Below, in pieces: positions 26,988 through 64,000 of a stretch of 64,000 nt of DNA. A program made the translations under genes and the position numbers. A model generated the notes under the pieces. The model was not told the origin of the DNA and searched no databases. It saw nothing but the letters and a program-made list of their open reading frames with translations. The stretch comes from Elusimicrobiota bacterium (GTDB lineage Bacteria > Elusimicrobiota > Elusimicrobia > FEN-1173). Every line of letters begins with the position of its first letter. Within the stretch, counting starts at the first letter, position 1. The stretch is taken from the NCBI GenBank assembly GCA_041917295.1, contig JAYRXX010000006.1, positions 16,876-80,875 of the forward strand. The letters are read 5' to 3'.

Positions 26988-29900
26988 TTAAGCATTTGAT
27001 GCCAGATGTCTAAGAAAACGCAGGAAGGTTTCCACAACCTCCGTCAAAGTCAGCGCGTTCATTAATGCCGTTCGGAGTTTGGAATCAGGGTTGAGCGCCT
27101 CCACGGCCGTTCGGTTTATGCCCACATTCTCCCCCACCGTGGCCACAATGCCGTTGGCTTTCGCCAAGAAGGGGGCCATTTTATTGTCCAGATCCACGAG
27201 GACTTCCTTCGACCACCCATGATCCTGAATATCCACCGAGAAAACCGCCCCCCCCCGCGCCTCAAACATATCGATCATGGTTTTAAATTTGATTCTTTGA
27301 CTTTCCGAAACCACAAGAGCAACAGAGAACCCGCTCGATGTTTTCCCCTCCCGTTCGATCAAACCTTGAAGGGTTTGAAGTTCCTGTTCCTGGGAATTCC
27401 CCAAAATGTGCACATGCGCGATCGGTTGTCCCGTGGCGGCCATGACCAGCGCTGAAAGTAAATTCAAGGATGACCCGGAAACATTTTCTTGAGCGATGGC
27501 CGTTTGAACAACACCCAAAAATCCCATACGAAATTCTTTGTCCGTTTTTAATCGAGACAGGGTTTTTGTCAGCCACTCGGGCAATGAGTTCCCGTTCCCA
27601 ACAATCTCCTCCGTATGCCCATTGTGAATCCCCGGCATCACCACCTCAAAAGCGCCCTGAACATGGGACAATTGTTTGATCAATTTCCAAGCCGCTTCTT
27701 GCCCCTCCTTTCGCAGATTTTCTTTGTCAAAGGAATGGTGTAAAAGCCCCGCTAACGCCCAAACCGCGCCCCCAGCCAGAACACCAAATTCCGGAATGCC
27801 CAACAACGGAACCGCCCCCAACAAATATGGCGTCACCGAAATTAAAACCCCATAAATCACGCCCATTAACAACGCCTGCACCACCCCCACCTTCACTTTC
27901 GTCACCGGCGCCAAGGATTCAGGAATAAAGTGGGACCCGAAAAACAATATCCCATAAACCAACCCCGCCACCGGAGCCATCAACCATCCAAACGCAGTCC
28001 CCGCGAAAGCGAGGGTCCCCATAAAACCCCAGAAAGCGACCTTAGCACTAAAACTCCACTCGATCAACGCCGCAAACCGCTTGTAAGCCGCCCCAAACCG
28101 CTCGCTTCCCTGTTTAGGATCCACCTTTGACCCCATCCACTCTGCGAATTTAAGTCCCCAAAGGCTTGTTCCGCGCCCGGATTCTGGATCGAGCGGTTTT
28201 TTAATGTTGGCACCCTTTAAGAAAATTTCACGGAGGCTGTCATTAACCTCGTAAAGCGGAGAAAAAAAATCATCGCTTTTTGCGTAAACCCCTTTTAAGG
28301 TTTCAACCGCATTATACTTCAGGCCGGCCACAAATCTAAAACGGTGAAACAATGTTATTTCGAACTCGGTTGGCCGGTGACTACGCATAACAAGCCTCGG
28401 AATATCCCTTTCAACAAGAGTTTTTGTCCTTTCAACAAACAATTTTTTTACACGATCCACATCAGCTGGCGTGATACTGGGGTCACGAACAAGAACAGAT
28501 GGGCCTTGGGGCTTTCCGAGCGGTTTTTCCACGGGACTCGTTTCGTTAGCAACGCTTATTCCCATGTTCGCCAAATCCGTCGTTGGTTCCAGATAAGCTT
28601 TCGCACTACTTTGTGCCACAATAACAGATGTTCCCGGTTTCGCCGAATCTGTCACCGGTTTAGACCCATTTGTATTTCTTATCGTTGCCACAATAACAAG
28701 GGGTTGCTTATTCGCTTCTGTTGCACCGTCACGCTTTGCTCTATATTCGTAACGAAACTCAATGTTATTTACAAACTCCGAAAGATACCCTAATTGGTTC
28801 AATACGGCATCCTTTGGATTAGGCACATATGTTAAACGTTCCTGATGATTGTGTATCATCCACTGGATAACCGTTGCTATCCGCAGTTCATTAGGATCCG
28901 CAAATCCCAAGTCCCTCTGGACAGGAAGCGACTTAAAGCTTTCATAAAAAGACGCCAACCTTTCACCGGCTCGATGAACTTCGATGTCGCCATCAATATC
29001 TTTATAATTGGTTGCAAGTCTATCTATTCTGTAATCCTGTTTATAATAACGAGCCCTGTATTTTTGGCCCTCAGTAAAGACAAGAACTTGTTCAGTGTCA
29101 AAAGATAGGTCTCCGATATGCCTCACATATTGGTATTGCGGAATAGGAATTAAAATAAGCAATCCCACAATAAATGACAGAATGATGGCAATTGAGCCAT
29201 ATAATGCGAGTTTCATTATATTGTTTAATTTGATCCGCGCGTCTGGGAATGCGGGAACAAATTTCACAGATCTAAGATTGATTAGTAACTTTGCGAAAGA
29301 CTTTGAAATCACATTTCCAAAATACCGTTCAAATAAATAATTAAACCTGGAATAGAAAAACCCAAAAATAAATGGAAGCAGGGAAAAAATCAATCCTTGT
29401 TGAGGGAATAAAAAACACAAGTGTACCCAAAGTGATAAAAGGAATGAAATCCGCAACCAGTTAATTGATACTGTTTCAAAAACATCATTAAACACCGGTT
29501 TATTAAAATCTACGCCTAAATAAGAACTCAATCTTTTTTTTACGTCGGCTAATTCTTCTCGCTTATTCATTTCCTGTGGATACAACAAACAGACTCGAAT
29601 TAATTCGGCATAATGTTCCATAGAATGTGTTAACGAATATGCACTAACAAACATTCCGGATTTGTTTTGTTGAGGTGTGTGCAGATATCCTGGTATCAAT
29701 TTTGACAATATTTCGTCAATTATTGTTGGATTATCCTTAATCTCCCATGCTAAATCCTCAATATAATGTAGAGAGTCAGGATTACTATGATGAAGTGCGT
29801 GCCCAATCTCATGGGCAAAAACGTTTCTAAAACGTCCACGCCAGGGAGAAACTCGAACAATCAAATGACCATCGTAACTGAAACTACCCCCGAAACGAAA

Positions 29901-32627
29901 TGACATGAACCAGGGGAGATGGCTTAAAGTAATCACTTTCAAACTTGAAATGCGTTCAGGCGGAATTCTCTGCAAAATAGACTGAATATCTTCTAGGTAT
30001 TGGAACGGAGTAGTTTCCCAACCTTTTACTTCCAAGCCAGGGAAATGCGCTTGAATTTCATTTACCTTATCCATCTTTTTTCCCATCAGCTTTATTTTCC
30101 AATTAATAAAATGAGGAATGTTAACCAAATCAAAAACCAAGTGGACCGTTGGAACGACGAGCACAATATGGGCCAAATAAATGTCCTGCACAAGAATTGC
30201 CAGTTCGAAAATGGAGTTAAACCCAACAAACGGAAATAACAGGTACAGCATTAAAACAATTCGCCGGATTCTTAAATTGGGAGGGTTTTTGTCATCGATT
30301 TGTGACTCGAGGAAGTCGTGAAAGTAAGAAAATAACAGCAAAAACGGTGTACTCACCCAAAAGGGGGTGCTAACAGAAATCACCACCAAAATTGGGATTT
30401 CAATCACCAGCCCGACAATTCCAATCAAGTCCGCATGTTTGGTCAATGCCTGACCATATTTGTTTTTCATTCGCTGGCCAAAAAATAACGATAAACTCCT
30501 AAACACCGCGGCGGGATTAGAAACAAACATAGGTTTGTCGGGATCAATGTTCCCTGCTTGGGGGCGGGAAAATTTGGATCTTATGAATTCCAAGGCCGAG
30601 TGCCACTTTGACGACTGGATGGAACTCTGGGTCGCTTGAGCGATAACGCCCCCTTCCGTTTTAACATCAAGTTCCGTGGCACTGTTGCCATTCTGGATTC
30701 GGACGGTGGCGCGGGTTTGAGAAATTTTCAAAAGAGACAAGGTTCCCAGCCCGCCCAAAGAAGCGTAAATGACGGGAACAGTGGATTCAGAGTCGCCCAC
30801 GGCGAGCCCCAGGAGGGCGGCAACAACAGCCACGAGGGCGGGCAAAAACGTGCGCGTCAATGTCAGTGGGGCGGGATGCTGTGACAGGAATAATTTCTCC
30901 CCCTCAAACAACCGCTCCAGAGGTGTTCTCTCCTGGGTGAAGACGGAGAGGTAGGTCGAACCTTGAACGGAATCTATCTTTTCAATTTTTGGAACATACG
31001 AAATAACCGTGGCCCCCGTTTGGGTCAACAGATCGGCCATGCCTTCGGCGTGGAAACCGCCGGTGACCAACAGGCCGATAGGTGGAGAGAATGTGGCGGA
31101 TTTTGGATCTAGGTCCAGGGCCGCCAAAAGATTTTGGGCCATGGCCGTGTCTCGGGCTTCGGCTTCCCGGTAAAACGATTCGAAAGAGGCGAGCACCCCG
31201 TCGTTTGCGAGCGGAGAGAAAAAAACTTCCAGGTTTCCTTTCCCCCCTTCATATTCCTTCCATTCCGGCGGGGTTAAACTGAAATCCACCAGTTTGGATG
31301 TCAGCCAGGCTTGGCGCGACTGGGCAGCCAGGGCTTTCTCTTCCGAAGTGGGCGCCAGTGCGTCGTAGGCGGCTTTTTCCAGAGAGGACATTTCGTTCAA
31401 TAATTTTTCCGCGTCGATCCCGTCGCAGAGAAGAACATATCGAACATACTCGTCCATGGCGGGGTAATCCGACAGGCGGATCCCTTTTTTCGCGCAGGTT
31501 TCTCTGAGTTGTCCGTAGAAGTCCCCGTACCGCAGTTCGCCCGTTCGATAGGCTACGCTTTGGGCCATCAGCTCGTTGATCTCTTGTGTGCTGAGAAAGT
31601 TCGTCAGCTTTTCAATCAGCCGGGATCGTTCGGCTTCCACCTGTTTAAAGTCGAGGGATCGCTCCGTGTTTAAAGCCTGCGTCAATTTGTCGACGTTCCG
31701 TAACGAAGAAGACTGGATTCCGGCTAACCCCATGCCGGAATGACGGGAGTAGTTGTTCTCCTTCCTTGAAACGATTTCCACCAGCACGCCCACATAGTCG
31801 CCCAAGGACACGCTGTCGGCTCGATATCCCGACACGGTCTCGTCAAGGGCCAAAAGGGCAGGTGAAAAAACCGATTTCTTCTGCTCGTCAATTTTCAATT
31901 GGTGGGCTTTGATCAGTCGGCGGGTTTCGTCCAGTTTCGGGGCGGAATCTTTGTAGGCCTGGACGTTGGCGGCGTAATGGACGGGATCGTCGATGCCCAG
32001 GATGCGGGGCAGTTTGCCCGATGCCGTCAAGGCCGCGTGGATGGGGCCGGAAATCTTGTTTTCCCTCAACAGATAATCCGCTGTCAGTTCAACGGCTTTC
32101 CTGTTGGGGAAATCCACAAAGGGCTGGAGGGCAATGTCTTCGGTGGATCCCTCCAGGGCCACAAGGCCCACCTTTCCGGAATTCAACAAAGTCGCCACCG
32201 TCTCCCGGATATTTTTCTGGGCTTCGGCGTTCATGTGAACGTCTTGGATGTGGATCACCACCGGCCCACGTGCACCGGCGTTTTTCCCAAGGGAGACCTT
32301 TCGCACGCTCCCGTGGACGGGAGAGAGCGCGGTCAAAAGATCGGCGTGACTTTTTAAAAAGGATTTAGGGAGTGACCGAACAACCGATGGGGTGAGCGAC
32401 GAACGAACCATTTGCGGCGAAGGAAATTGCGCCGCCAGGTTGTCCCCCGCTCGGTGTCCAAGCGGAAGAGAAGCCAATACACTGGGAGACGTTCGCCGAG
32501 CCACCTGGCGCCGTTGGTCCCAAAAACTCTTTTCCGGCTGATACGCAAACAGGCTCTGGGTGGCCAGGAGGGCCCCAGAAATCACAAAACCCGCGACTTT
32601 CTTTGCATCGAGCGTGGGACGTTTCAC
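26988..32627 (-). CDS. Giant A: 1879-aa exported modular protein (signal peptide, TIKI/TraB-like module, TM bundles, HExxH peptidase-like domain)
   Basis: Uninterrupted ORF from GTG 32627; signal-like N-terminus ending SLFA; QDVH/EG/RD..M/GGFH motifs; HEIGH at 29799-29813; several hydrophobic bundles. Confidence 0.85.
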   Translation of the reverse strand: MKRPTLDAKKVAGFVISGALLATQSLFAYQPEKSFWDQRRQVARRTSPSVLASLPLGHRAGDNLAAQFPSPQMVRSSLTPSVVRSLPKSFLKSHADLLTALSPVHGSVRKVSLGKNAGARGPVVIHIQDVHMNAEAQKNIRETVATLLNSGKVGLVALEGSTEDIALQPFVDFPNRKAVELTADYLLRENKISGPIHAALTASGKLPRILGIDDPVHYAANVQAYKDSAPKLDETRRLIKAHQLKIDEQKKSVFSPALLALDETVSGYRADSVSLGDYVGVLVEIVSRKENNYSRHSGMGLAGIQSSSLRNVDKLTQALNTERSLDFKQVEAERSRLIEKLTNFLSTQEINELMAQSVAYRTGELRYGDFYGQLRETCAKKGIRLSDYPAMDEYVRYVLLCDGIDAEKLLNEMSSLEKAAYDALAPTSEEKALAAQSRQAWLTSKLVDFSLTPPEWKEYEGGKGNLEVFFSPLANDGVLASFESFYREAEARDTAMAQNLLAALDLDPKSATFSPPIGLLVTGGFHAEGMADLLTQTGATVISYVPKIEKIDSVQGSTYLSVFTQERTPLERLFEGEKLFLSQHPAPLTLTRTFLPALVAVVAALLGLAVGDSESTVPVIYASLGGLGTLSLLKISQTRATVRIQNGNSATELDVKTEGGVIAQATQSSIQSSKWHSALEFIRSKFSRPQAGNIDPDKPMFVSNPAAVFRSLSLFFGQRMKNKYGQALTKHADLIGIVGLVIEIPILVVISVSTPFWVSTPFLLLFSYFHDFLESQIDDKNPPNLRIRRIVLMLYLLFPFVGFNSIFELAILVQDIYLAHIVLVVPTVHLVFDLVNIPHFINWKIKLMGKKMDKVNEIQAHFPGLEVKGWETTPFQYLEDIQSILQRIPPERISSLKVITLSHLPWFMSFRFGGSFSYDGHLIVRVSPWRGRFRNVFAHEIGHALHHSNPDSLHYIEDLAWEIKDNPTIIDEILSKLIPGYLHTPQQNKSGMFVSAYSLTHSMEHYAELIRVCLLYPQEMNKREELADVKKRLSSYLGVDFNKPVFNDVFETVSINWLRISFLLSLWVHLCFLFPQQGLIFSLLPFIFGFFYSRFNYLFERYFGNVISKSFAKLLINLRSVKFVPAFPDARIKLNNIMKLALYGSIAIILSFIVGLLILIPIPQYQYVRHIGDLSFDTEQVLVFTEGQKYRARYYKQDYRIDRLATNYKDIDGDIEVHRAGERLASFYESFKSLPVQRDLGFADPNELRIATVIQWMIHNHQERLTYVPNPKDAVLNQLGYLSEFVNNIEFRYEYRAKRDGATEANKQPLVIVATIRNTNGSKPVTDSAKPGTSVIVAQSSAKAYLEPTTDLANMGISVANETSPVEKPLGKPQGPSVLVRDPSITPADVDRVKKLFVERTKTLVERDIPRLVMRSHRPTEFEITLFHRFRFVAGLKYNAVETLKGVYAKSDDFFSPLYEVNDSLREIFLKGANIKKPLDPESGRGTSLWGLKFAEWMGSKVDPKQGSERFGAAYKRFAALIEWSFSAKVAFWGFMGTLAFAGTAFGWLMAPVAGLVYGILFFGSHFIPESLAPVTKVKVGVVQALLMGVIYGVLISVTPYLLGAVPLLGIPEFGVLAGGAVWALAGLLHHSFDKENLRKEGQEAAWKLIKQLSHVQGAFEVVMPGIHNGHTEEIVGNGNSLPEWLTKTLSRLKTDKEFRMGFLGVVQTAIAQENVSGSSLNLLSALVMAATGQPIAHVHILGNSQEQELQTLQGLIEREGKTSSGFSVALVVSESQRIKFKTMIDMFEARGGAVFSVDIQDHGWSKEVLVDLDNKMAPFLAKANGIVATVGENVGINRTAVEALNPDSKLRTALMNALTLTEVVETFLRFLRHLASNA

Positions 32628-32660
32628 ACCCCGATTCTACCACGCCCGCCCAGAAGATCC

Positions 32661-32689
32661 CCTTAAGAACTTGTAACAAAACAGTAAAC
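32661..32689 (-). promoter_or_regulatory. Conserved upstream element of giant A: TTTACT-N5-GTTACA-N4-CTTAAGG
   Basis: Same three blocks and spacing as 47451-47478; ends 33 nt upstream of the start codon. Confidence 0.7.
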
Positions 32690-32792: not shown

Positions 32793-33071
32793 TCAACATG
32801 TCCCTTTAAAGGCGGGGATACTTGTAAATTTCGGCAAGAACAATGGGCGGTTTTTTGTTCTCCCCAACAGGAGCCCGCTTCCAAAAAAAGGAGGGATCCG
32901 CAACAAGGCCTTCTGATCTTCCCAAATATCCCAATTGAAATACCCCCCGGGGGATGAGGGCAAAAGACTCTTCGCCAACGTGATTTTCCCTACCTGCCGC
33001 GGATCGGCGATAAACGCCATTTTCTTTTCTTCCGCCAACAATCGTTTCATTTCCGAGGTCAGATAGCGCAC
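32793..33071 (-). pseudogene. Degraded AAA_14-type ATP-binding protein fragment
   Basis: KMAFIADPRQVGKIT (decayed GPRQVGKTT) and YFNWD; a Walker-B-like remnant IVLAEIYKYPRL lies in another frame after a T run and is followed by a stop. Confidence 0.7.
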
Positions 33072-33131: not shown

Positions 33132-35363
33132 TTACGCGGCGCATTCGCCCACGCCGATGTCGGGTTTGAAGTCGGTGGTTTCGCCCCAATCGAAATACAG
33201 AGTTGGATTTTCCGCATAGGGGGGCAACGTGGTGAATTCCTGAACCAAATCTTTTACCCGTGTTTTTCCCACCCGGTCGAACCAATCATTAAACGTCTCC
33301 CCGGATTTTTTTTCTACTTTAAATGCTCCGATCACTTTTTTGACCGCGTCGGGCACACGCCGGGCCGGGAGAGCCCCGATCACTTGACCAAAGCGCGCTT
33401 CTCCTTCTTTGGTGAACCCGCCGGCCAGCATCATGTAATGGGGCACGGGCCGATCGTTGATCTTTCGGTAGGTCCCATAAAAACCGAGACTGCCAATGTG
33501 GTGTTGTCCGCAACTGTTGGTGCATCCGGAAATTTTAATGTGAACGCCTTCCATGTCCACGTCGGCCGACAACCCGTCGGTAAACAACCCGCCGATGGCT
33601 TTGGCCAGTTCCCGCGATTTGGTCACGGCAATTTGGCAGGTGTCCGCGCCAGGGCAACGGGTGATGTCGGATAACCGGTTCCCCCCCGCGGTGGCCAACC
33701 CGGCTTTCACCAAGGCGTTGTAAACCGTCGGCAAATGCTCGTTTCGAATCCATCGCAACAAGAAGTTTTGTTCCACCGTCGTGCGCAACCGCCCGCCGTT
33801 CAACCGCCGCGACAGATCCGCCAACGCGCGCATTTGGCCCACCGTGATGTCGCCCAAAGGAAGAACCACCGTGGCCCAACTGTAACCCGCTTGACGTTGC
33901 GCGGCCACGTTCGTGGCCTTCCAACGGTCAAACCCCGGCGCGGGGGGTTCCACGGCGACGGATCCCGCCGCCAAAGCCGGCGCGGTTTCTTCCGTCACAG
34001 GAACCGTCCAATCGATGGATCCGGCCCGGGTGGTTAAGACGGCACGCCGTTCGGCTTGAAACTTCTTGCGAAATTCATCGGCCCCCCACTTCTTAACCAA
34101 AAACTTAATCCGGGCGTGGAGCTTGTCGGTTCGGTCGCCGAACCGATCGAACATCCGCACCACGGTTTCGATCGTCGGCATTAAAAGGTCCGCGGGGGTG
34201 AACTCTTCCAACCGAATCGCCACCTGGGGCGTCGCACCCAAACCGCCGCCCACGTAGGTGCGAAACCCGCGCACGCCGTTGCGGATTTCCGCCACAAACG
34301 CCATGTCGTGGATGGGCGTCAGGGCATAATCCGTGGGGGTGCTTTCAAACGCAATTTTGAATTTGCGGGGCAAGTTTTGGCTCAGCGGGTTGCGAAGAAA
34401 AAACTTAAACGCCGCGTCGGCGTACGGGGCCACGTCAAACACATCGTCCGGATGAACCCCCGAGTATGGGTTGGCCGTGATGTTTCGAACCGTGTTGCCG
34501 CACCCTTCCCGCGGCGTCAAACCGGACTCGGCCAAACGGCGAATGACCTTCGGCGTGTCTTCCAAAGGAACCATGTGAATCTGCAAATTCTGACGGGTGG
34601 TGAAATGACCGATCTTGGATGGGGCAAATGTTTCGGTCACGTCAGCCATGGCTTCCAGCTGATCGGGCGTGAGTTTTCCGAAAGGGACCTTGATGCGAAT
34701 CATTTGTTTGTCCACTTGGTTGCGGATGCCGTAAATGCCGTTGTTGAGGCGAAACCGCCGAAAGTCGTCCATTTCCATTTTGCCGGCTTTCAAGGCGCGG
34801 ATGTTTTCCTCGGCTTGCCGGATTTCATTTTCAACCGATTCGGGTAGGGCGTAAGGCATGGACGACTCCTTGATTAACTCAATGGGTTCCTCAATAAACG
34901 GCGCCGATTCCTCGTCGCGAAACCAGGAACGGGCCTCATCAAACCGGCCTTTTTTTACCGACACGATTACGTTGGACCAACCGGCCAACAACGGTTGGGC
35001 CGCGTCGGTGGCGCTGGGCCGCGCCGGGTGGTCGGGATGGGTGTGCAGAACCCCCACCAAATCCAACCCGTCCTTTTCGGCTTCCAAAACCGCCCGGTTA
35101 AACGCCGCCGGGTCCATCACAAATTCGAACTCACCCTCTGTATCGGCCCGCGCTCCCAACGTGTCCCGGGCCGTATCCAATACACTGGGCCGCGCGGATG
35201 TTTTTTCGCGCAAAAGGTTCGCCAGCGGGACAAACCGTTCCACACGCCGGACCCCTCCCGGCATAAACCGTCCCACCAAAACGCCGCACCCTTCGTAAGG
35301 GTAACAGGACTGGGACCACTCCCGAAGAAATTCCCGAACCGACGAACTCCACACCAAACTCAT
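33132..35363 (-). CDS. Mec/JAB (MPN+) metallopeptidase fused in frame to a ferredoxin-dependent siroheme sulfite/nitrite reductase
   Basis: N-terminal YPYEGCG and HTHPDHPARPSATD (JAMM HxHx7Sx2D); from M169: FTTRQNLQIH, GCGNTVRN, LPRKFK, CPGADTC and SGCTNSCGQH cluster/siroheme ligands. Confidence 0.88.
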   Translation of the reverse strand: MSLVWSSSVREFLREWSQSCYPYEGCGVLVGRFMPGGVRRVERFVPLANLLREKTSARPSVLDTARDTLGARADTEGEFEFVMDPAAFNRAVLEAEKDGLDLVGVLHTHPDHPARPSATDAAQPLLAGWSNVIVSVKKGRFDEARSWFRDEESAPFIEEPIELIKESSMPYALPESVENEIRQAEENIRALKAGKMEMDDFRRFRLNNGIYGIRNQVDKQMIRIKVPFGKLTPDQLEAMADVTETFAPSKIGHFTTRQNLQIHMVPLEDTPKVIRRLAESGLTPREGCGNTVRNITANPYSGVHPDDVFDVAPYADAAFKFFLRNPLSQNLPRKFKIAFESTPTDYALTPIHDMAFVAEIRNGVRGFRTYVGGGLGATPQVAIRLEEFTPADLLMPTIETVVRMFDRFGDRTDKLHARIKFLVKKWGADEFRKKFQAERRAVLTTRAGSIDWTVPVTEETAPALAAGSVAVEPPAPGFDRWKATNVAAQRQAGYSWATVVLPLGDITVGQMRALADLSRRLNGGRLRTTVEQNFLLRWIRNEHLPTVYNALVKAGLATAGGNRLSDITRCPGADTCQIAVTKSRELAKAIGGLFTDGLSADVDMEGVHIKISGCTNSCGQHHIGSLGFYGTYRKINDRPVPHYMMLAGGFTKEGEARFGQVIGALPARRVPDAVKKVIGAFKVEKKSGETFNDWFDRVGKTRVKDLVQEFTTLPPYAENPTLYFDWGETTDFKPDIGVGECAA

Positions 35364-37299: not shown

Positions 37300-37307
37300 A
37301 GGAGATC

Positions 37308-47370: not shown

Positions 47371-47450
47371 GCGTCTTTCGCCCCTTGCGAACCAATGAAG
47401 CACGATTCCCCCCCCCCCACATTAATTTAATTAACTATGTCCCATGCGAT

Positions 47451-47478
47451 TTTACAATTCCGTTACAAACTCTTAAGG
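47451..47478 (+). promoter_or_regulatory. Conserved upstream element of giant B: TTTACA-N5-GTTACA-N4-CTTAAGG
   Basis: Matches the giant A element; ends 36 nt upstream of ATG 47515. Confidence 0.7.
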
Positions 47479-47514
47479 GAATCTTTAGATTGGTTTGATA
47501 AAATTCCCGTCATT

Positions 47515-56500: not shown

Positions 56501-56991
56501 ACTTTATACATTGGGCAAGCACCCACATTTGGTACGTCATCTCGGCCGTCCCTGTTCTAATATTGTCATTTTTCACCCCCATAATCATTTCGCGAATCAT
56601 TAGTCGAAGAATCCCCCCCGCTTCAGGCCCATTAATAGAGGCAAACGGAACCATCCGATTTACGGATATTACAGCGTGGGAAGTAATGGTTGATTTAAAC
56701 AGCCTGGCGAGAAAAAAAGCAGACAATGAGATCCTACGAGTTATTGAAACAGCCATCTCCCAAATTGAGGCCACTCGTTTACTCAACACAAAGGACCCGA
56801 TTTGGAATAAATTATACCCGCATTTAAAACATGGGCCTGCGTCTTATTCCAGGCGCAACCTCATCGCCCTGCTGGAGCAAGCAAACCCCGAACTTAGTCA
56901 AATCGAGATTATTCCACCAAACACAGATCACGTTCAAAGTGTGATCTCACAATTTCTTAACACACAACACGCCAGATTGATTCAAACATAA
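47515..56991 (+). CDS. Giant B: about 3158-aa membrane-anchored protein with a TIKI/TraB-like N-module and two tandem (Clp-like pseudo-AAA + Lon AAA+ + Lon protease) units
   Basis: Signal-like MKLFLRM...LAPLAQA; Walker A GPPGVGKT (51382) and SHPGQGKT (54874); Walker B FLDELDK and LLDEIDK; KDGDSAG (Ser 55852) and GAIEAK (Lys 55981); start moved from 47437 to 47515 on signal-peptide and upstream-element evidence. Confidence 0.9.
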   Translation: MKLFLRMVRPGLGGMISFSLLLTGPLAPLAQARTEENKANYWTARKSVARQRSLPTQPVKAPFPNSPHLRGSEPVKETSKNWFEVASYTPVFGPRSWKRGNVLVPFVTIIQDAHDNYEAQLALSRTLAELADKEKDGPLLVCVEGAWGPLSTEIFKPLDPELRKQKADQLLKRHIITGEEFLSIVHPGLIQLVGVDDPDLHKKNTVARELVETHRWSTTERMKILQINMERLKKAVYPPRMRSIDEIRLKYQTGILNSQEFAKKIVPYASKEWWLKNFPLLYQLSSLDADGLEKSPTRAEIEEWVTTLSNTDLQNKIDWLLHQKKIDLPVLANEMEKAPDQLLRMDKRFQLLVELDQWISLADRLISLKMTPEDLNQFDRIEPSQSIEDVANKINIISRKNNVRVLPLPQARRPNEETTWQAAKSFYRIAKKRDNAMATNTLRQARKHDKRKVVLIAGGFHTPGISRLFRLQQNFNHSLCPKFSSSVTKAPRPTLRKKSLFQKSIPENKRKFRLSPTLTPFFRFIVFMSISSLALAAGGGTGSDWIEYLVLASTISDPFLRRLISRKPIATPPEEILINSDAAVGKLKNDFLAIYRSQKIPEAIKLLDEVSSYSDLRAYFLLSLLEKTEQQALLESMPPALKRRVLNGLPDYEYHAYIRGIEKTIQCISSLKEMDDLWKKIISDVREGSPNNKTVLSYLNAITEAKERVSIILNKLESQVASLKSIASDPGSIPKLIPPQETTDFILTRVNPALNTRTIAHGHLYSIFSHLEYAEKWLGTKLSPFGGMAAFGLGSSGYINRTPPAPTALESSVASLHLANGAKERLRDELYFLRHPEATYRTVHQDWVETISNATRQTKIKDLKALSPRSRDDDEMESERLKKIESFSHRMGNGVEDLSLKAQAFLETIEGPPWSLTQSHYLAELERVSGYFEGPVLDRRATVVLPNPSDIQLFASDLAVLYRHQGKAKKLVILDIGRIQTSHHDQSSIENFLTALLAEAKERGNVMILVDMEGVQGEGNRTYLHLMERWRVENDQSLAPDLIILSSERTFTFHLQQDALKKAAPTFTVTMKDPARLTTRRLDAFQERISAQLGIVLEHPLVEACVTRLSSSDRFGVVDRSIKLLTDLALRVQNERQPVTSPSLEDLSGSADLFSEETGELPLELRAVARLDVMPPDSQITVKKKLAELSNLRITDPNSERIADIERLIDTIISIPWIEMAPPIVSRDAPREIQDQQIEELYNRFEEKLRQSHTGLEENVVQALKDLLGLVILSDIGRVPPTTNIPTLVGPPGVGKTALMQLLGEVTGRPVYRISMNTIQDPMNLKGSSPTFLHAKEGRLVAELIGGEPRVGNPIYFLDELDKTPPAVQTVFLDVGQSYLRDNYAGMVFVGNSLFVATANHLENVIAPLRNRMDIIPMPGYTLRGKTNIATRNTLPRALAKNFLSDDPGNGHQEVAFNNRPAVLQFLAQGYAREEGMRHMIRLIDNILIEAYALYIKTGRPTLIDEKFVRSILGAPIEFLRIPKQDPVGRAYFPHPSGNLIDTHAIPKSTISPLAGRSAFLEMTLPVELLLNEHGPDWTKNICALFDGKRDSIAPISNLQIDVPRVVQEDAAAQLAMAIATLSKATGIPVKREMAFIGEMDNRARVVAATKLRQRILVAYDAGARWLAIPHGNKNELMTSLFPAMEAIRGPILEPPVNDGEEWTVYRPRQGNIPFVADKGPLESVLALAEGEISMAPSECIYVLVRTVEDGFSLAFAKLGRQSFKENPPSPIDIIPPQEKTKPAVSELTRPFEKFPELPTRVLEWNINVNGQLVDLRNLFRNGLTEEALSLIQNITQTIASTGSLDSIAQLEACARFSIAQNDGAAFVDFLLGLDPTTRCRIISVFSPETLGTLVHLKGASGYLTETARWEANLIKIQSTLASIKNNSVQRKDVIEIQDMLSVPGAFPPLFREGGSYYTIVGLRAAIDNYLYREGGIDDMKAHMEECLEIGISCLNKYRTVLSYNANPTGLLAVKNAMDQALTELAVFRPLFLSPDELGGQDPEGSWQVYMANEHLRQETLRGSCRFIPLEDLPASAGIDSPESNVWHALFGVPFERFVEVSNRDNHKVMVLTGCPPLLRNAWASYLNRNLWKVGLPQRIIKIDVSKLLESNYRSGESTESKWPRLKKTLEAARDSGNMVVWIDLDFLPPSAPPFLISRIMRLFNQGSGQASVIFTGEEFVHQNLVNSSPVYAGGVTHLSIGEENRENLLRLEIIEREKITKVQYPAPVVEHLCEKVRSGSVSLSLARRILDRAHSPSGEPLTPALIDSTQKGIDLENDQMLQWATLWEQFEFISGKMPKSARKRAMTLFGQFRKASGDEAAALENQIRIIIEFPWEKRAPSPIPRLPPNPQPEDYKNLESIIAGQINTVREELDRSHHGMDRVKELIINYVLRDSLARAHTGKGVGKPLLVVSHPGQGKTTLAESVARALGRPFIFIPLGAVKHTEELTGFASQYVNSDAGLLIKGMIRAGALNPVMLLDEIDKMGGGETSPIDSILSLTDPEQNEKFRDEYPQVDFPMDEPLYFATANDIEKLPGPVRDRFEIIVLPPYTQQEKSAILVDKALPELMEKWETNDRVTVTNAFPIAQIILSIVQEHGVRLAKAKMSTLILRSLIESHLTRTPIEITEAVARRLLRISEPPPSAEIVSARVGEINGLVYNEATGEGAVLGIHANLHNLGGDEPFRYVGIGRLGPSMKASLDRAVALAQVRAQTMIPSLNLNGKVLTVLVTKQDVQKDGDSAGVGFYFVALSALTGVPVSQDIALTGAISPSEGAMQVGAIEAKVSAAINAGVKYIFIPTENRDVVDGIVRSNGTNITLVEDLTETSFPFTLRIPRLLWSPGLELRAQANLESSVEQVGMAKNQISFEKGVAVIRCSASQLKDFSKSNKHYSEPPTLVLYPDANLIEDRVLTKNSPRGTDINMRDLRNGFITPQFSILLFFFTALAIGLPIGFEISHFIHWASTHIWYVISAVPVLILSFFTPIIISRIISRRIPPASGPLIEANGTIRFTDITAWEVMVDLNSLARKKADNEILRVIETAISQIEATRLLNTKDPIWNKLYPHLKHGPASYSRRNLIALLEQANPELSQIEIIPPNTDHVQSVISQFLNTQHARLIQT

Positions 56992-57012: not shown

Positions 57013-60000
57013 TTAGGCATCCGATCCGATCCGTTTCATGGCTTTCAGGTGATTGTGGATCTCTTCAATCGGCAAGCGCAGGCCCAGGGTGAGCACGTCT
57101 TTGCCCAGTTTTTCCCACGTGGCTTTGTCTTGCAACACCGTCGTGTCCGCCGGGGTCGCGCCGATCATCTCCGGGATCAACGACGTCAACACATTGAACC
57201 GAATCACCCCGCCTTTCACCGCCCCGCGGCGATCCAACAGATCTTTCTCACCGAACACAATGGACCCATTGGCCGCGCCTTTGGCCAACGCCCCGCGAAC
57301 CTTTAGCATATCGTCTACCGACAAACCGTTGTTCACCACCAGAATCTTCAATGTTGATAACTGAGCGTCGTCCAACCGGGACGCCGCAAGAGCCCTCAGT
57401 TTCTGGACCGCATCCTCGTCCACCCGACCAGTGGAGATCAGGTCCGTCGCCGCCACCAGCACCAGCGACGTCTGCGACTGTCGAATCGCTTCATTCATCA
57501 GCGCCTTTTCCATTCGGCCCTGGTAGAGCTGGCCCATCCAGTATTCGCTGTTCGTCAACCGCGCATACCGTTCCCCCATCACCGTCACAATCGAATAGCT
57601 CAACCACGCCCGCCGCGCCATCGCCGGCGTCAGTTCCTCAATTTCTCGCAACAGCCCCAACAAGCTCAGATCCGCCAATTCGTTCGGCATCGAAGAACTG
57701 ATTCGGTATTGAACCACCATCTCAGACGCACCGCCCGTCACTCCGTACCGAGCCAAAGTGGGGATATGTCCCACTTCGTGCACCAACCGGGCCATCACAT
57801 CTCCCGCTTCCCCGTTGCGCACGTGGACCACATACCCCTCTTCGTTCGCCACCACAAACGCGTTCGTGTGCGACTCCGTGTTCCTGTGCCCCTCGGCCGC
57901 CAAAATCCGCTCAAAACTTACAGAATTTTCATGCAACACCACCCTCACCGGCGGCATACCCAAGGGAGACATTTTCAATTTCTTTTCTGATTCCAGCATC
58001 TTTTTCAACATCCCTTCCGCCGCCTCTTGCGCCTGAGCCTGTGTTAACCGCGCCCCAACAGCACCGGTCACTCCCAGAAGGCGATACACCCGTTCCGGCA
58101 ACACACCCGTCTCTTTCTCCAGCTCAGCAATCCGTTTCTCCAGGCTCGCCAACAATTCTCCTTCACGCGTCGGCACACCCATCTGCTCAAGATACCGCGC
58201 CAGCCGCGCCTCCGCCAGAATCTCCATTAACATCGGGTCCATCGCCTGTAGTTCCGGCGCCAACTGATGCATAAACTCCACCGTTCGTTGACGCAGTTGC
58301 CCCTCCCAACTCAACCGGCTTGCGCGCCCACTTCGAACCGCCCGGTTTGCCGCCTCTATCATTTCGTTCATCTGCTTCACGGTCAACCCCAACGTCTTCC
58401 AGTCCGCGTCCTCCGGCAACACAGCCGACAACGCCAACGCGTTGGCCACCGACGTGTTCAAGATCGGGTTCCCTTCCGCTTCCATCCCAAGGAACCCTTC
58501 CATGTCACGTCCTTGTTCAACCGCCTCCCGCACAATTTCCCCCACCGTCCTCGTCGCGATCAGTTTCAACCCATCCCGCGTCACCTGCGCTTCTTGAACT
58601 AACCCGTTGGGCATGACTCGAAACGCCACAACCCTCTTCCCCGACGCGTCCGAAATAAGCTGGAATTCAGGATCCCCCATCGCTCCAGGAACACGCTGTT
58701 GTCTATTAATGAACTGGATAAACGCCGCCATGTCCGCAACCGAACTATTCACTCGGTTTCCATCCAATTCCAAGTTCTCATGAATGTGCAACGTCGGGCC
58801 GGTAACAGCAGGAACCTGAACACCCCCGCTGACCGTCACCTGCCCAGCCACAACCGCAGGCTGACCATTCTCTCCAAACACCGCCACCTGGTTCGATCCC
58901 AATTGGCTCGCGAATCCTGGGTTCGCCGCAATCCACGCCGCGGCCGCCACTGCCCGCGCTGCCGCACGACCGGGCACTCTTGAACCCAATGTCGTTATCC
59001 CCGATTGTTCACCGATTTCCTTATTTAATACCACAGCACGAACCAACTCTTGCCCAACCATTTTGCCTGTTTCCACAAACCATCCTTTCGGCAAACTCCC
59101 CATGTTATAAACCATGTGGGCCACAGTCGTCACGATTGTCCCCACCACAGGCCCCGCCACCACGGAGGAAGCCAAAATCAATCCAACTCCAGCCCCAAAC
59201 AACCCAAACCGCTTGCCGAACTCTTGCGCGTCTTGAACCAATGCCCCCCGATCGAAAACGGCCGACCACCCGCCTCGACCTCGATCCGGGTTCAATTGCC
59301 CGTATCGCCCATGCCATTCCGCGAAAGTATGGGCCAGAGCAAAACCCAATCCCACCAAAACCCCCACCTCCCCCAACCCGGCCAAACTCGACAGGTCACC
59401 TGCAAACACCATTTCCTTTGCTCCCCACAACCACGTTTCCAAGAACATCAGCCCTTCAACGATCGGGCTCACAACCGCAACAACCCCCAAATATCCCAAC
59501 CGTTGCCCAAGGGAACCCTCTTTCCAATCCCGCAAATAAGCTTCAAACACAGACGCGACCGATCTCGCTCCGCTCGCCGTCGCACCCGCGTTTCGCTCGC
59601 TGGCTTCGGGACCCTTGGGTTCATCTGGTGATCTAGGATTTGATACTTCTCCTGTCCCGGAGTTCGGTGGAGCCTCCCCCTTTGCCAGCCTCTGAATCAT
59701 ATTCCAAATAGAATTGGTAGCTCCTGGTCCTTCCTGACGCAACAGATTATCAATCTCTTTAGGATAACCGGCATTATCGGTCAAATCAAACATGCTCCCA
59801 GTCAGCCTATATGGCGGATCCCCAAAGACACCGCCCCTCTTCTGGTAATTAAATGGAACTTGGTCATTATTGCCAAAAGAAACATTGATCCCCGGCCTTT
59901 TTTCTCCCTGGGTCAGGCCTGCGCCGGAGAAACTCCACCCATCACCAGCTCGATCGTGCCATCCCCATCCCTCTTCCGGCCTTTCCGTTCCTCCACTCAA

Positions 60001-63000
60001 CTCCACTTCCCGAACCGGTAGATTAACCCTTTCAATCGTCGGTACGGACAAGACGGCTTCCACTCCTCCATCAGGCTCTTGCCAATTCCTTGATTCAGCT
60101 TCTCCTTGTTGGGCAATTTCTTTCGCGTTTGCTTTTTCTCTTTGCGCTGATAACGCCTCATTTCGCTCCGCGGGTATCGACTTCGCGAAAGCCAACATGG
60201 AATCCAGCTCTCGAACTTTCGCTTGAAGAGTTGCCTTTGTTTCCTTCAATTTATCGATTGCGGCTTTGGCTTCCCTTAATTCGTAAACTGGCTGTCCAGG
60301 CGTATCCAATTGAGCAGTCCCTGATGGCATCGCTCGAATCTGCTCTTCCAATTTGCTCACATAAGTTTCATTTTGATTAATCCCAACATCAATTCGGGAA
60401 ATACGTTCCCCAAGACCTTTGATGCCTACTTGTAATTTGGCCTTATAGGCCCGAAGCTCACTGGGGTTCATTTTTGACACCCGGTCTACCTGATCGAGTT
60501 TAGCCACCGCACTCAACTGGTTAAGGGCATTTCCATATTTTTGATTTAAATTGTCCACACCATTACCGGGACCATCAGCCGATTGAGCGCTGGACAGTGA
60601 AGCCAACTCTTTTTGACCCATAGCTTTTATTCTTGATCCCGCCAAAGATTCAACTTGGGCTCGATGAGCAAAGGAACCCTGAGTTTGAGCCGACTCCCCT
60701 CGCCAAAGCGTTTCGGCCAATGCATTCGCCTCGCTTTGAACATTTCCATCCATCGGAAGGGCATTCAAAATTACGGATCTGACCCCATCCGCACCGAGAA
60801 ATTCCCCATACTCCAACACGCTGGCCCCATAAAATGTCAGGAACTCTTCTAGGCTGGCACTCGCCAATGGCGTCGTTCGTTCATTCATCTCCCGGATCAA
60901 CTCAAACTGAGCTCGCACTACTTCGGGCTGTTGCAAAACCTGGGTGACGTTCATCTGCCCCTTCTCGGTCTCGGTCGAATCGTCATACAAGATCTTTGCC
61001 TCTCTCGTATCGGTCACGCCCCGCGCGGTGGCCGCAAGTTCCATAACCGTTTCCCAACTGACGCCCGTGGACGCACTTACCTCATTGAGGTCAGCGAGAG
61101 TCCAATCGCCCTTCGCCTCCAACTTAGTCCATTCGCTAGCGGCTTTCCGGTCAGAATCCCAACTCTTGCTTTGAACCATCGCACGAGCTTGACCCACAAC
61201 CGCCGTCACCACAGGAGCGACAATCATTCCCGCCACACTCCCAATCGCCATAAAACCCGACACAGCATATGTCGCAATAGCCCCAACAGCGGGTCCGCCA
61301 TAACTCATCATAAATCCTTTGTCCGAAAACACAGCCCCCCATCCTTCCGTCCTCTTTTTCTGAGCCATATTCCTAAAAATGTCCACCGGGGATTTGGCTC
61401 CTGGGGCAAACGCGTTAAAGGCGCCCGCTAAGGCCATAACCGGGATCGCCATTGCGGATCCGCTTAGTAACAACACCCCTCCTAAAACCGTTCCAGCCAT
61501 GCCCGCCCCCTGGAACCACTTGCCGTAAATGCCGTTTGTTATTTCGTCCACCTTGGCGGAAAAAGCTTTGGGATCATTCCCCTGCAAGGAAACAAGCGTT
61601 TGGAGGTCACGCATCTTGGCCCCTCCAACGAACCGCGACGATTGACTACCCAAGTTTTCCGTCAATCGGGTTACCAGATCCCGCGCAGGGGAGAATGAAC
61701 TCGCTTCCAGGACTTGACCCTGGACATTCACACGGTCGGAGGCGACAATGTTTGGTAACTCATCGCTAAGTGGTATCCCTTGATCTGTCACTATTTGGGC
61801 CGCGACGTCTGCTAATACGTGGGCCGCTTGTTGAGCGACGTTTGACAGCCCACCGGTTTTTCCGCTCGAATTAGGGACATTACTGGCGACCTGGGCAACA
61901 GACCTCACGCCTTCGACCAAGGGCGTAACCTGCCGGGCCAATGTTTCGGTCATCGTCATTGGGCCAGAATAGGCCTCCGGATGCGCGTCCAAATCCGCCG
62001 CTTCAGAGAAAGCACCTTCCAACCCTCGATTAACGACTCCCGCGTCCAAACGGTCAGCCATCCGACCCAACATCTCACCCAACCCCATTTGGTCACTGGA
62101 TCGATCTTTTTGAGCAATCCCTTGGCTAATCTGAACGAGCCACGGGCTTGCTGAAATCATCCCTCCAAACAAGGAAGAGGACAGATCCGCCCATCGGTAC
62201 CGGGCTTCCTTTGCAAATCCTTCCAGGGCATGCACGAATCCAGTCGCCCCTTGGGATTTCTGGGCCGAAGAAGGAACGGAGGTCACCGCAGAGGCGAGAT
62301 GGGTAATAACGCGCGCTTCTAAGGCCGTTTGGGCTCGAACGTCCAAATCCATATCCTTAAACCCTGTCAGCAGGTCCGCCATGTTCCCAAGGACGCCCCA
62401 GTTGGCGGCGTTGTCCGCATTAGGACTTGCGTCCCATCGGGGGGTCCAGCCGGTCAGAGCGCCAACCATCTGATGAACCTGGTCCATATTCCCTTCGGCT
62501 CCCAAAGCCGAGAACGCCTCTCGGGCGAACAGGGCCACCTCAGCTCCAAACCCGTTGGCCACCAGGTTTTCCGATTGGCGTCCAATGGATTCAACCATGG
62601 ACTCGCCCTCAAAGAAGTTCACACTCGAATCCCTCATTAATCTCGCCGCGGTCCACAACGTATCCGCCACGGCACCGATATCGCCATCCATCCCGTCGCT
62701 CAGCTGGTTGGCAAGATCAAACAAAGCGTTTTCCACCCATGGGATATTCAACATCGGTGCGTTATTTATGTTCACCTGCGCCATGACCTGATTGACAATG
62801 GCCACATTCACCATTTTCTCGGCATTGTTTCCGGCTCGCGCTTGCAACTGCGATGAGGCACCAGAATATTTTGTCACAGTTACAAATTCCCCTCGCCCAA
62901 TCGCTCCCGACACAAATCGTTCTGCCGCTTCCATGAATCCCAAATTGCTGTCTTTAGTCGTAAACCGATCCGTTCCAGATGCCGCACTTAGGCGGGACTT

Positions 63001-64000
63001 ACCCATCCGATCACCCATTTCTTGAAGCACTTCGGACGCCTCATGGGGCAGAAATGCTGCCATCAACTCAATGGGTTTTTCTTGGAACGCCTCTTCTTTT
63101 ATGAACGCTTCCCATCGGCCCACATGTCCTTTGGCCCACATTCCGCCAAGGAAATGATCGAATTGGTTGATATACTTCACAAAAGACCCAAGTATCGGCA
63201 CATTCTGGATCAGTGGAGCCACAACAGGCCGGAACAACCCAACCATTCCACCAAACAGCCACATTTGAGGATCAGCGGCCGTTTGTTTAATTGTCGCCGC
63301 GAATCCCGCGAAGGCCGATTCAAAGCCTTCCTTAAACGCCGGTATATTGACCAACCCGCCAAACAAGACAATATCCTGGGCATCCTCGCCATACACGGCG
63401 GTATTAATTGCCCCACCTAATCCATAAGCCACCGCGTTGAATTTTGTGACATCCCGCACCGTTCTCTCCATCCCAGAAATTCCCGTGACTAACCCTCGCC
63501 CGATATCTCGACCCAACTGCATCGCCACATACCCAGGCCCTTTCACAGATAGATTTGTCATCAAACGACCAATGTTACCCCCAATCTCACGAAGGCCCGT
63601 CACTTCAAGAACACCAACTCCAACCTGTTTTGCCGCCGTTATAATCCCACTTGTTTTGTAGCTTGTAGAGACGGCCGAAAATTGGGATCGAACCACACCC
63701 ACCCTATCCAATACGGTTTCTTTTGAGAATAACACCTTTCCCCCACCAGCCCCGGGGGCCATCCCCGCAGCCAAGAAAGGCGCGAATATTAATACCACAC
63801 GAACGGCATCCAACATCCCGGGATCGATGGTAACACCCATCTTCGATAACGCCCAGGGAGCCAGCCCTTCAACCTGAGCCCAATCTGGGCCAATTCCTGG
63901 ATTTCCAACAATCAATGCATTAATTATTACCTTAGGCAATGTAAACAGCCCCATTACTTTGCTGGCTCCTTCAAGCCCTGCCTTCGACGTTTGGAAAATG
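57013..64000 (-). CDS. Giant C: 5'-truncated giant membrane protein (more than 2300 aa visible) with Gly-rich hydrophobic segments, coiled coil, CPBP-like bundle and HExxH motif
   Basis: Frame stays open to the window edge (...IFQTSKAGLEGASKV-MGLF); HEVGH at 57766-57780; stop 21 nt from the convergent stop of giant B. Confidence 0.85.
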   Translation of the reverse strand, partial: IFQTSKAGLEGASKVMGLFTLPKVIINALIVGNPGIGPDWAQVEGLAPWALSKMGVTIDPGMLDAVRVVLIFAPFLAAGMAPGAGGGKVLFSKETVLDRVGVVRSQFSAVSTSYKTSGIITAAKQVGVGVLEVTGLREIGGNIGRLMTNLSVKGPGYVAMQLGRDIGRGLVTGISGMERTVRDVTKFNAVAYGLGGAINTAVYGEDAQDIVLFGGLVNIPAFKEGFESAFAGFAATIKQTAADPQMWLFGGMVGLFRPVVAPLIQNVPILGSFVKYINQFDHFLGGMWAKGHVGRWEAFIKEEAFQEKPIELMAAFLPHEASEVLQEMGDRMGKSRLSAASGTDRFTTKDSNLGFMEAAERFVSGAIGRGEFVTVTKYSGASSQLQARAGNNAEKMVNVAIVNQVMAQVNINNAPMLNIPWVENALFDLANQLSDGMDGDIGAVADTLWTAARLMRDSSVNFFEGESMVESIGRQSENLVANGFGAEVALFAREAFSALGAEGNMDQVHQMVGALTGWTPRWDASPNADNAANWGVLGNMADLLTGFKDMDLDVRAQTALEARVITHLASAVTSVPSSAQKSQGATGFVHALEGFAKEARYRWADLSSSLFGGMISASPWLVQISQGIAQKDRSSDQMGLGEMLGRMADRLDAGVVNRGLEGAFSEAADLDAHPEAYSGPMTMTETLARQVTPLVEGVRSVAQVASNVPNSSGKTGGLSNVAQQAAHVLADVAAQIVTDQGIPLSDELPNIVASDRVNVQGQVLEASSFSPARDLVTRLTENLGSQSSRFVGGAKMRDLQTLVSLQGNDPKAFSAKVDEITNGIYGKWFQGAGMAGTVLGGVLLLSGSAMAIPVMALAGAFNAFAPGAKSPVDIFRNMAQKKRTEGWGAVFSDKGFMMSYGGPAVGAIATYAVSGFMAIGSVAGMIVAPVVTAVVGQARAMVQSKSWDSDRKAASEWTKLEAKGDWTLADLNEVSASTGVSWETVMELAATARGVTDTREAKILYDDSTETEKGQMNVTQVLQQPEVVRAQFELIREMNERTTPLASASLEEFLTFYGASVLEYGEFLGADGVRSVILNALPMDGNVQSEANALAETLWRGESAQTQGSFAHRAQVESLAGSRIKAMGQKELASLSSAQSADGPGNGVDNLNQKYGNALNQLSAVAKLDQVDRVSKMNPSELRAYKAKLQVGIKGLGERISRIDVGINQNETYVSKLEEQIRAMPSGTAQLDTPGQPVYELREAKAAIDKLKETKATLQAKVRELDSMLAFAKSIPAERNEALSAQREKANAKEIAQQGEAESRNWQEPDGGVEAVLSVPTIERVNLPVREVELSGGTERPEEGWGWHDRAGDGWSFSGAGLTQGEKRPGINVSFGNNDQVPFNYQKRGGVFGDPPYRLTGSMFDLTDNAGYPKEIDNLLRQEGPGATNSIWNMIQRLAKGEAPPNSGTGEVSNPRSPDEPKGPEASERNAGATASGARSVASVFEAYLRDWKEGSLGQRLGYLGVVAVVSPIVEGLMFLETWLWGAKEMVFAGDLSSLAGLGEVGVLVGLGFALAHTFAEWHGRYGQLNPDRGRGGWSAVFDRGALVQDAQEFGKRFGLFGAGVGLILASSVVAGPVVGTIVTTVAHMVYNMGSLPKGWFVETGKMVGQELVRAVVLNKEIGEQSGITTLGSRVPGRAAARAVAAAAWIAANPGFASQLGSNQVAVFGENGQPAVVAGQVTVSGGVQVPAVTGPTLHIHENLELDGNRVNSSVADMAAFIQFINRQQRVPGAMGDPEFQLISDASGKRVVAFRVMPNGLVQEAQVTRDGLKLIATRTVGEIVREAVEQGRDMEGFLGMEAEGNPILNTSVANALALSAVLPEDADWKTLGLTVKQMNEMIEAANRAVRSGRASRLSWEGQLRQRTVEFMHQLAPELQAMDPMLMEILAEARLARYLEQMGVPTREGELLASLEKRIAELEKETGVLPERVYRLLGVTGAVGARLTQAQAQEAAEGMLKKMLESEKKLKMSPLGMPPVRVVLHENSVSFERILAAEGHRNTESHTNAFVVANEEGYVVHVRNGEAGDVMARLVHEVGHIPTLARYGVTGGASEMVVQYRISSSMPNELADLSLLGLLREIEELTPAMARRAWLSYSIVTVMGERYARLTNSEYWMGQLYQGRMEKALMNEAIRQSQTSLVLVAATDLISTGRVDEDAVQKLRALAASRLDDAQLSTLKILVVNNGLSVDDMLKVRGALAKGAANGSIVFGEKDLLDRRGAVKGGVIRFNVLTSLIPEMIGATPADTTVLQDKATWEKLGKDVLTLGLRLPIEEIHNHLKAMKRIGSDA

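Follow-up and report, generated by a model that had tools for sequence, protein, structure and literature searches.

Two paralogous giant genes of an Elusimicrobiota bacterium belong to a very large family of modular proteins, probably membrane-anchored, with a shared promoter element

The 64,000-bp stretch of Elusimicrobiota DNA analyzed here (the window; contig JAYRXX010000006.1, positions 16,876–80,875) carries three giant open reading frames (ORFs), designated A, B and C, which an initial annotation had grouped as one family of exported, modular, protease-carrying proteins. All three are present at the positions it reported, and they do not form a single locus, with housekeeping genes occupying 33–46 kb. 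By sequence comparison A and B are true paralogs within a very large family of giant modular proteins that appears confined to Elusimicrobiota, and we consider it moderately probable that its members are membrane proteins with a dedicated promoter, an exported but tethered head, and cargo at the cytoplasmic face. C looks like a separate, lineage-specific giant gene that is not demonstrably related to A or B.

The N-terminal similarity of A and B pointed out in the initial annotation is recovered by BLASTP, with residues 1–289 of A aligning to 33–298 of B (E=2e-13) and 395–534 of A to 343–495 of B (E=1e-5). The FW..RR peptides that had been quoted for the two proteins are genuine; the peptide follows the signal peptide, and W36 and R39 are invariant in an alignment of 21 sequences. 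A and B have in common a Sec-type signal peptide, a head module of ~560 aa, and a 42-bp DNA element upstream of the gene.

Searching with the whole of A yielded 233 proteins, whose matches mainly cover its first ~600 residues at 36–66% identity, the exception being the ortholog P0002, which is 63% identical across 99% of its length. In all of these matches the head begins at residue 1–76, or at residue 1 in N-terminally truncated records. A profile built from 21 heads and searched against 1.84 billion representatives (clusters at 50% identity) identified 9,266 family representatives at E ≤1e-3, 8,094 at E ≤1e-10 and 5,790 at E ≤1e-30. The module lies at residues 1 to ~600 in every protein checked (the 120 best matches and the 150 best representatives), and these proteins range from 553 to 6,142 aa in length. 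For genomic context one genome was taken per species; 176 stretches encode a relative, and 79 loci were used, all 79 of them from metagenome-assembled genomes (MAGs) of Elusimicrobiota, several of which hold at least 7 loci each. The family therefore appears to be confined to this phylum. With at least 9,266 clusters and many copies of 1,000–6,000 aa per genome, it would represent a sizeable share of the coding capacity of a poorly understood phylum, on a scale far exceeding what could be seen from the window sequence alone. In the source databases its members are named 'hypothetical' or after a recognizable cargo domain, and no description of the family was found in the part of the literature that was searched. 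The parts are all of known kinds; what seems not to have been described before is their combination and scale, their apparent confinement to a single phylum and the dedicated promoter.

Signal peptide features are present in 201 of 222 family proteins, with a positive n-region in 91% and Ala at −1 in 73%. The c-region follows the pattern (N/Q)-x-(L/A/V)-(F/L)-A and then Y or H, and the B orthologs have plain AxA sites. The head was modelled with AlphaFold2 (predicted local distance difference test, pLDDT, 75) as six strands alternating with helices, giving a central parallel beta-sheet flanked by helices in a core that is split by a helical insert of ~270 aa; the motif residues fall at strand ends in this prediction. 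Invariant in the 21 heads, that of B included, are D129, H131, E159, R492 and G523-G524-x-H526. The defining features of the TIKI superfamily are a core of parallel beta-sheet and a 2His/2Glu motif; in its member RRSP the His-Glu pair is separated by 28 residues (PMC6254334). H131 and E159 have this same spacing of 28, with Asp replacing the first Glu of the motif. PF04187 (ChaN/Tiki) matches 16 of the 21 heads (best E 2.4e-6), all under its curated cut-off of 27.7 bits, and when PDB sequences were searched with a profile of the head, no TIKI member came up, just spurious EF-hand matches. The initial annotation had listed TIKI/TraB among the protease-like domains of these genes; judged from sequence and model, we read the head as a distant, probably active TIKI-type hydrolase, though its scores do not reach the curated level.

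The likeness to the TIKI superfamily (Tiki, TraB/PrgY, erythromycin esterase, ChaN, HopBA1, RRSP) comprises the predicted alpha/beta core, the acid-x-His...Glu...His constellation with its RRSP-like spacing, the sub-threshold profile matches, the many domains appended to the core, and an extracytoplasmic, membrane-tethered placement, as in Tiki and PrgY, that we infer for the family. The family differs in the insert that splits the core, in the Asp substitution, in scoring below the cut-off, and in having its head fixed at the N-terminus of proteins of up to 6,142 aa, with a promoter element of its own and with one phylum as the source of all retrieved loci.

The upstream element of A and B, also flagged in the initial annotation, scores 40.6 and 40.4 bits against a position weight matrix (PWM). 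Its 17-bp core GTTACAANNTCTTAAGG (32661–32677 at A) occurs three times in the window against 0.06 expected; apart from the A and B copies, the window holds no match to the 42-bp element at 8 bits or more. The consensus, tTTTACAAaaaaGTTACAAnTTCTTAAGGngaTCTTAAtgnc, consists of two pairs of 7-bp direct repeats with 11-bp spacing within each pair. A TAnAAT −10 box stands 7–8 nt past the element, no −35 box is found at the family promoters, and the distance from element to start codon is modally 19–21 nt. At roughly half of the loci just 6–8 nt separate the −10 box from the start codon, so that leaderless mRNAs are predicted, and this geometry provides a handle on gene-start annotation. Because the orthologs of B begin at the signal peptide and the element lies inside an apparent extension of 26 codons, we place the start of B at ATG 47515 and not at 47437. 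The apparent extension (47437–47514, plus strand) is the promoter element read in frame, and the same false extension occurs in the annotated ortholog P0210. The B ortholog in locus L082 keeps the element upstream (42.7 bits).

Across 1.17 Mb of loci plus the window, scanned on both strands, 79 of the 81 element matches at 20 bits or more directly precede a head-encoding ORF. In two-fold cross-validation the element was matched upstream in 62 of 77 held-out loci, with 13 matches elsewhere in 1.09 Mb and none in shuffled sequences; in the full scan, matches away from the anchor gene nearly all lie upstream of further paralogs. These sequence patterns suggest that the element serves a regulon as its operator or promoter; since the element is conserved across the phylum and almost exclusive to family genes, such a regulon is directly testable. 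Its repeat geometry resembles OmpR/PhoB-type sites such as the pho box, in which 7-bp direct repeats with 4-bp spacers (an 11-bp period) replace the −35 box just upstream of the −10 box; the family element differs in having two different repeat pairs and a leaderless start. The OmpR-type regulator encoded beside B was rejected as the family regulator, since such a gene is present at just 1 of the 79 other loci. A candidate is the family member P0080, which carries a sigma-70 domain and could act on the family promoter as a membrane-tethered sigma factor.

Downstream of the head the proteins diverge in content. Pfam scans, both precomputed and re-run, of the 119 best relatives most often recognized NUDIX (16), inositol monophosphatase (9), PPDK/phosphoenolpyruvate-utilizer (6) and NAGPA-like (5) domains, together with DUF89, metallophosphatase, GT4 glycosyltransferases, phosphoglycerate kinase, kinases, phosphatases, radical SAM, DnaJ and HEAT repeats; about half of these relatives have no recognizable domain. 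Most of the recognized cargo is of cytoplasmic enzyme types, and P0080 has at residues 764–1018 a complete sigma-70 (regions 1.2, 2, 3 and 4) behind its TIKI-like head. Every catalytic-looking domain in the window genes had been taken for protease-like; in the family as a whole the cargo is mostly non-proteolytic, with a protease domain in 3 of the 119 (one rhomboid, one site-2 protease and one subtilase).

A subfamily also has in common with A its C-terminal unit, a second module that combines a transmembrane (TM) bundle with an alpha/beta tail behind it and is present in 12 full copies. By itself, the TM bundle occurs in up to three copies in one protein, and its hidden Markov model (HMM), iterated for four rounds, finds 46 copies in 37 proteins. 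In P0003, A-like ends (64% and 70% identical) flank a different middle of ~1,940 aa, and such mosaic structure points to domain shuffling in progress. The proposal of a chassis-plus-cargo family is therefore strongly supported for A and B by the N-terminal head, the varied cargo and the recurring second module, though not for C. The C-termini are also alike: 66% of the family proteins (P0001–P0222) end in alanine after an amphipathic helix (e.g. ...LASNA, ...AEAA), and in the same loci alanine is the last residue of 28 of 47 family ORFs, versus 57 of 524 others (11%). This conserved end may be a sorting, processing or degradation signal.

The cargo of B includes two Lon-like modules that are well supported by profiles and motifs; Lon had been named among the domains in the initial annotation. 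The modules are paralogs (26% identity, E=4e-24), and module 2 matches LonA structures at E=1e-60. Module 2 retains PGQGKT, DEIDK, DGDSAG and GAIEAK, all conserved in the orthologs, with Lys at the K722 position in each of them. Module 1 keeps its Walker motifs and has lost the Ser-Lys dyad, with Ala for Ser in four of five orthologs and Arg for Lys in five of five. Full-length collinear B orthologs are available at 62, 47, 39 and 34% identity, and the Lon residues are conserved down to the last of these. B is predicted to be a tandem Lon tethered to the membrane, in which one protease site is live and the other dead, and would be a compact example of such a pairing. It resembles Lon in the Walker A/B motifs and Ser-Lys dyad of module 2 and, by its predicted membrane tethering, LonB and FtsH. 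It differs from LonA in lacking the N-domain, in carrying two tandem modules in one chain with the first protease-dead, and in its fusion to a TIKI-like head and long helical regions that precede the modules; the full-length LonA equivalog model TIGR00763 gives 377 bits on B, below its cut-off of 608. An anti-phage defence role was considered and rejected, PADLOC giving just generic AAA/Lon matches, and no toxin families were detected by Pfam-type scans and PADLOC.

Gene A is a compositional mosaic. G+C content at third codon positions (GC3) is 0.64 in the head, 0.33–0.48 in the middle (aa 701–1450) and 0.57–0.58 in the C-terminal modules, against a genome background of 0.67–0.71, and the sharp drop within a single ORF is direct evidence that the middle cargo block came from elsewhere. 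The block is common just to A and P0002, save for a short TM-bundle match (aa 705–837) to P0081, and holds, besides a TM bundle, a domain that contains NVFAHEIGH...MEHYAE. P0002 conserves both HEIGH and EHYAE, Pfam M78 and Mx matches are weak and below cut-off, and we describe this domain (aa 846–1065) as a putative zincin-like one. The TM bundles of A had been likened to CPBP proteases. FxxxH and HxxxD/N are invariant in the TM-bundle module, but a CPBP/Rce1-like identity was rejected: there is no EExxxR motif, no Pfam match, and nothing significant in a Foldseek search (module model pLDDT 63).

Gene C is larger than the window shows. No stop codon interrupts the frame from its listed start to the window edge, so C runs off the window, and on a second contig with an identical B protein C is called at 8,211 residues and cut by the contig end, so that the gene is at least 24.6 kb long. 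At least 5,900 aa separate its N-terminus from the window, and in each of the three assemblies that contain C (e.g. L081 16282–26260) the contig ends within the gene. It has one protein match in 5.8 billion searched, and collinear orthologs in two close relatives only.

The initial annotation had included C in the family on the strength of motifs and a C-terminal tail shared with A, naming profile-profile comparison as the test. C fails it: hhalign of C against the A C-terminal module gives a probability of 0.4%, an HMM of that module (twelve copies) scores C at ~0 bits, the four-round TM-bundle HMM scores it at 0.4 bits or less, and the best BLASTP E-value for A-C and B-C similarity is 0.09. 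The motifs themselves are there, with HExxH at aa 939 of A and aa 2059 of C (a bare HEVGH) and FxxxH...Hxxx[ND] pairs in both, but they lie in proteins without alignable similarity and arise by chance in 2–34% of composition-preserving shuffles (for C, FxxxH/HxxxN in 7% and HEVGH in 1.9%). What remains of the tail is a weak link: C ends ...KRIGSDA and its ortholog ...RIATSA, and the C tail scores 6.0 bits on the family tail matrix, a value exceeded by 7 of 499 control ORFs.

These features suggest how A, B and their relatives might work. Each gene would be expressed from the dedicated promoter, with its two repeat pairs abutting a −10 box in place of any −35 box and often a leaderless start. 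The Sec-type signal peptide would export the ~560-aa TIKI/ChaN-superfamily hydrolase-fold head, with D-x-H...E...H intact and its large helical insert, to the periplasm, where it would remain tethered. Membrane-spanning segments would follow, and then a freely exchanged C-terminal region with unrelated enzymes, often closed by the amphipathic helix ending in alanine and acting on the cytoplasmic side of the membrane. On this view the family would be a co-regulated set of enzymes that are anchored in the membrane and have a periplasmic hydrolase or sensor head in common; the cargo of B would be a membrane-anchored ATP-dependent protease with one dead and one live Lon module, and that of A a low-GC block gained by horizontal transfer, which carries a zincin-like domain and is set between conserved end modules. 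The cargo is placed on the cytoplasmic side because Lon, phosphoglycerate kinase, PPDK-like and sigma-70 domains need ATP or cytoplasmic partners, and the signal peptide is on the head only. We entertain more tentatively, as rather less likely, the broader view of a phylum-wide regulon of thousands of TIKI-headed membrane proteins in which promoter and periplasmic hydrolase head could place almost any cytoplasmic enzyme at the membrane, with release by cleavage possible and C possibly a member whose head would lie off the window.

Several observations weigh against this model. Topology is its weakest step, as hydropathy plots of some members (e.g. P0080) have no strongly hydrophobic segment between head and cargo, and in B the first TM segment is flanked, towards the head, by a linker rich in Lys and Arg, contrary to the positive-inside rule. 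The hydrolase assignment is challenged by the PF04187 scores of A (15.6 bits) and B (18.7 bits), short of the cut-off, and by the Foldseek result for the head, whose match to HopBA1 (5t09; probability 0.63, E=0.59) is weak in a search dominated by the helical insert. The element is not exclusive to the family either: it precedes a 2,513-aa Rhs/YD-repeat protein (37.7 bits, L080 10484–10525; ORF from 10674) in an OdNE MAG, and a half-element lies upstream of the CheY-like gene near B, so that it marks a regulon and not the family alone. The Rhs/YD-repeat giant gene encodes a signal peptide and no TIKI-like head. In L082 the 17-bp core (7993–8009) stays with the CheY-like gene though AbiEi/AbiEii genes are inserted between that gene and B.

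One rival, that the chassis is exported and displays or delivers proteolytic domains to hosts or prey, is the interpretation first offered for these genes. The signal peptides and protease-type domains of A and B would suit it, as would the use of TIKI domains as effectors in MARTX toxins and the promoter element before the Rhs-like giant gene. We regard it as distinctly unlikely, since Lon AAA+ modules require ATP, cytoplasmic housekeeping-type enzymes dominate the cargo, a complete sigma-70 and phosphoglycerate kinase included, protease domains are found in just three of the 119 relatives, multiple TM bundles are internal, and no secretion-system or immunity genes are present among the neighbours of A and B inspected in the window. 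The family does recall polymorphic toxin systems and MARTX in its conserved N-terminal part, exchanged C-terminal modules, compositional mosaicism, many paralogs and giant size; with its housekeeping-like cargo, internal TM bundles and lack of adjacent immunity or secretion-system genes, it does not classify as a toxin system. Polyvalent proteins of phages and conjugative elements join many unrelated enzymatic domains in one polypeptide, sometimes with zincin-type proteases (PMC5512222). The family also combines unrelated enzymes in a single chain, and is set apart from polyvalent proteins by its chromosomal genes, which are not in mobile-element contexts, its membrane anchoring, and its common head and promoter.

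Alternatively, the proteins could be self-processing membrane polyproteins in which the TM bundles (invariant Glu, FxxxH, HxxxD), the TIKI head or both cut the chain and free soluble enzymes. Recurrence of the TM-bundle module between soluble domains, up to three times per protein, its invariant charged and His residues, the release that a fused sigma-70 would need in order to act, and a conserved ...xA end that might be a processing or degradation signal all speak for this; the module's failure to match Pfam CPBP or, significantly, anything in Foldseek, and its absence from B, make it unlikely in our view. Rather unlikely, too, is transmembrane signalling within one polypeptide, where a periplasmic head would sense a ligand and switch the output of a cytoplasmic enzyme. 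In its favour, a single conserved domain outside the cytoplasm is coupled to a wide variety of outputs inside it, and a two-component system and the CheY-like half-element gene do adjoin B in an arrangement kept in a relative, but the head holds a catalytic-type constellation and not a known sensor fold, classic signalling outputs are rare among the cargo, and the neighbouring response regulator is all but missing from the other family loci. Finally, giant ORFs might be assembly chimeras or fused gene calls, and giant genes do break assemblies, as C illustrates at its three contig ends. That explanation is very improbable for A and B, given full-length collinear orthologs of A (63%) and of B (down to 34%) from independent samples and the identical B protein on a second, independent contig.

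Table 1. Positions of the giant genes, their modules and the associated promoter elements in the window.
Feature	Position	Strand	Details
Gene A	26988-32627	minus	1,879 aa; family member
A signal peptide	32544-32627	minus	aa 1-28, ...SLFA|YQ; family-wide positive n-region, hydrophobic core, Ala at −1
A N-module	30858-32543	minus	aa 29-590; TIKI/ChaN-like alpha/beta core and helical insert of ~270 aa
A low-GC cargo block	28278-30527	minus	aa 701-1450; GC3 0.33-0.48 against background 0.67-0.71
A zincin-like domain (putative)	29433-30092	minus	aa 846-1065; HEIGH aa 939-943 (nt 29799-29813), downstream EHYAE
A recurrent TM-bundle module	27708-28277	minus	aa 1451-1640; invariant E, FxxxH, HxxxD
A C-terminal alpha/beta tail domain	26991-27707	minus	ends ...LASNA
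42-bp element 5' of A	32648-32689	minus	two TTACAA and two CTTAA boxes, 11-bp spacing; PWM 40.6 bits
−10 box TAGAAT of A (upstream TG)	32634-32639	minus	6 nt before GTG start; same geometry is the mode across family loci
Gene B	47515-56991	plus	3,158 aa from corrected start; family member with tandem Lon modules
Gene B as listed	47437-56991	plus	3,184 aa
B N-module	47611-49056	plus	aa 59-540 (ORF numbering from 47437)
Lon-like module 1	51106-52596	plus	aa 1224-1720; Walker A/B intact, protease Ser to Ala, Lys to Arg
Lon module 2	54583-56106	plus	aa 2383-2890; Walker A/B, catalytic Ser (DGDSAG) and Lys intact
B C-terminal hydrophobic helix pair	56422-56577	plus	aa 2996-3047
42-bp element 5' of B	47450-47491	plus	PWM 40.4 bits
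−10 box TAAAAT of B	47499-47504	plus	10 nt before ATG 47515
Half-element (17-mer)	47353-47369	minus	points at divergent CheY-like receiver gene 46915-47295 (minus)
Gene C as listed	57013-63954	minus	2,313 aa
Gene C inside window	57013-64000	minus	3' 7 kb of a gene of at least 24.6 kb (at least 8,211 aa)

The 15 kb separating A from B is occupied by housekeeping and regulatory protein genes, coding for a sulfite reductase-JAB fusion, a cysteine synthase-like pyridoxal phosphate (PLP) enzyme, a ThiF-rhodanese protein, a HAD hydrolase, GTP cyclohydrolase I, a peroxiredoxin, an EVE-domain protein, MoaE and NadA, and for three regulators (a sensor kinase, an OmpR-type regulator and a CheY-like receiver). 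The sensor kinase (sCache_3_2-HAMP-HisKA-HATPase) and OmpR-type response regulator (the latter at 46066–46746) lie directly 5' of B (44520–46746, plus strand), an arrangement kept in the relative with 62% identity. A short ORF (32793–33071, minus strand) lies between the sulfite reductase gene and the A promoter, has an AAA ATPase-like start that includes ADPRQVGKITLAKSLL, and looks like a gene remnant. The JAB-sulfite/nitrite reductase fusion, the PLP cysteine synthase-like gene and the ThiF-rhodanese gene form a sulfur cluster (33132–38666, minus strand) whose layout recalls sulfur-carrier-protein-dependent cysteine synthesis, and an ORF with an IS200-like Y1 transposase domain (36307–37299) lies within it.

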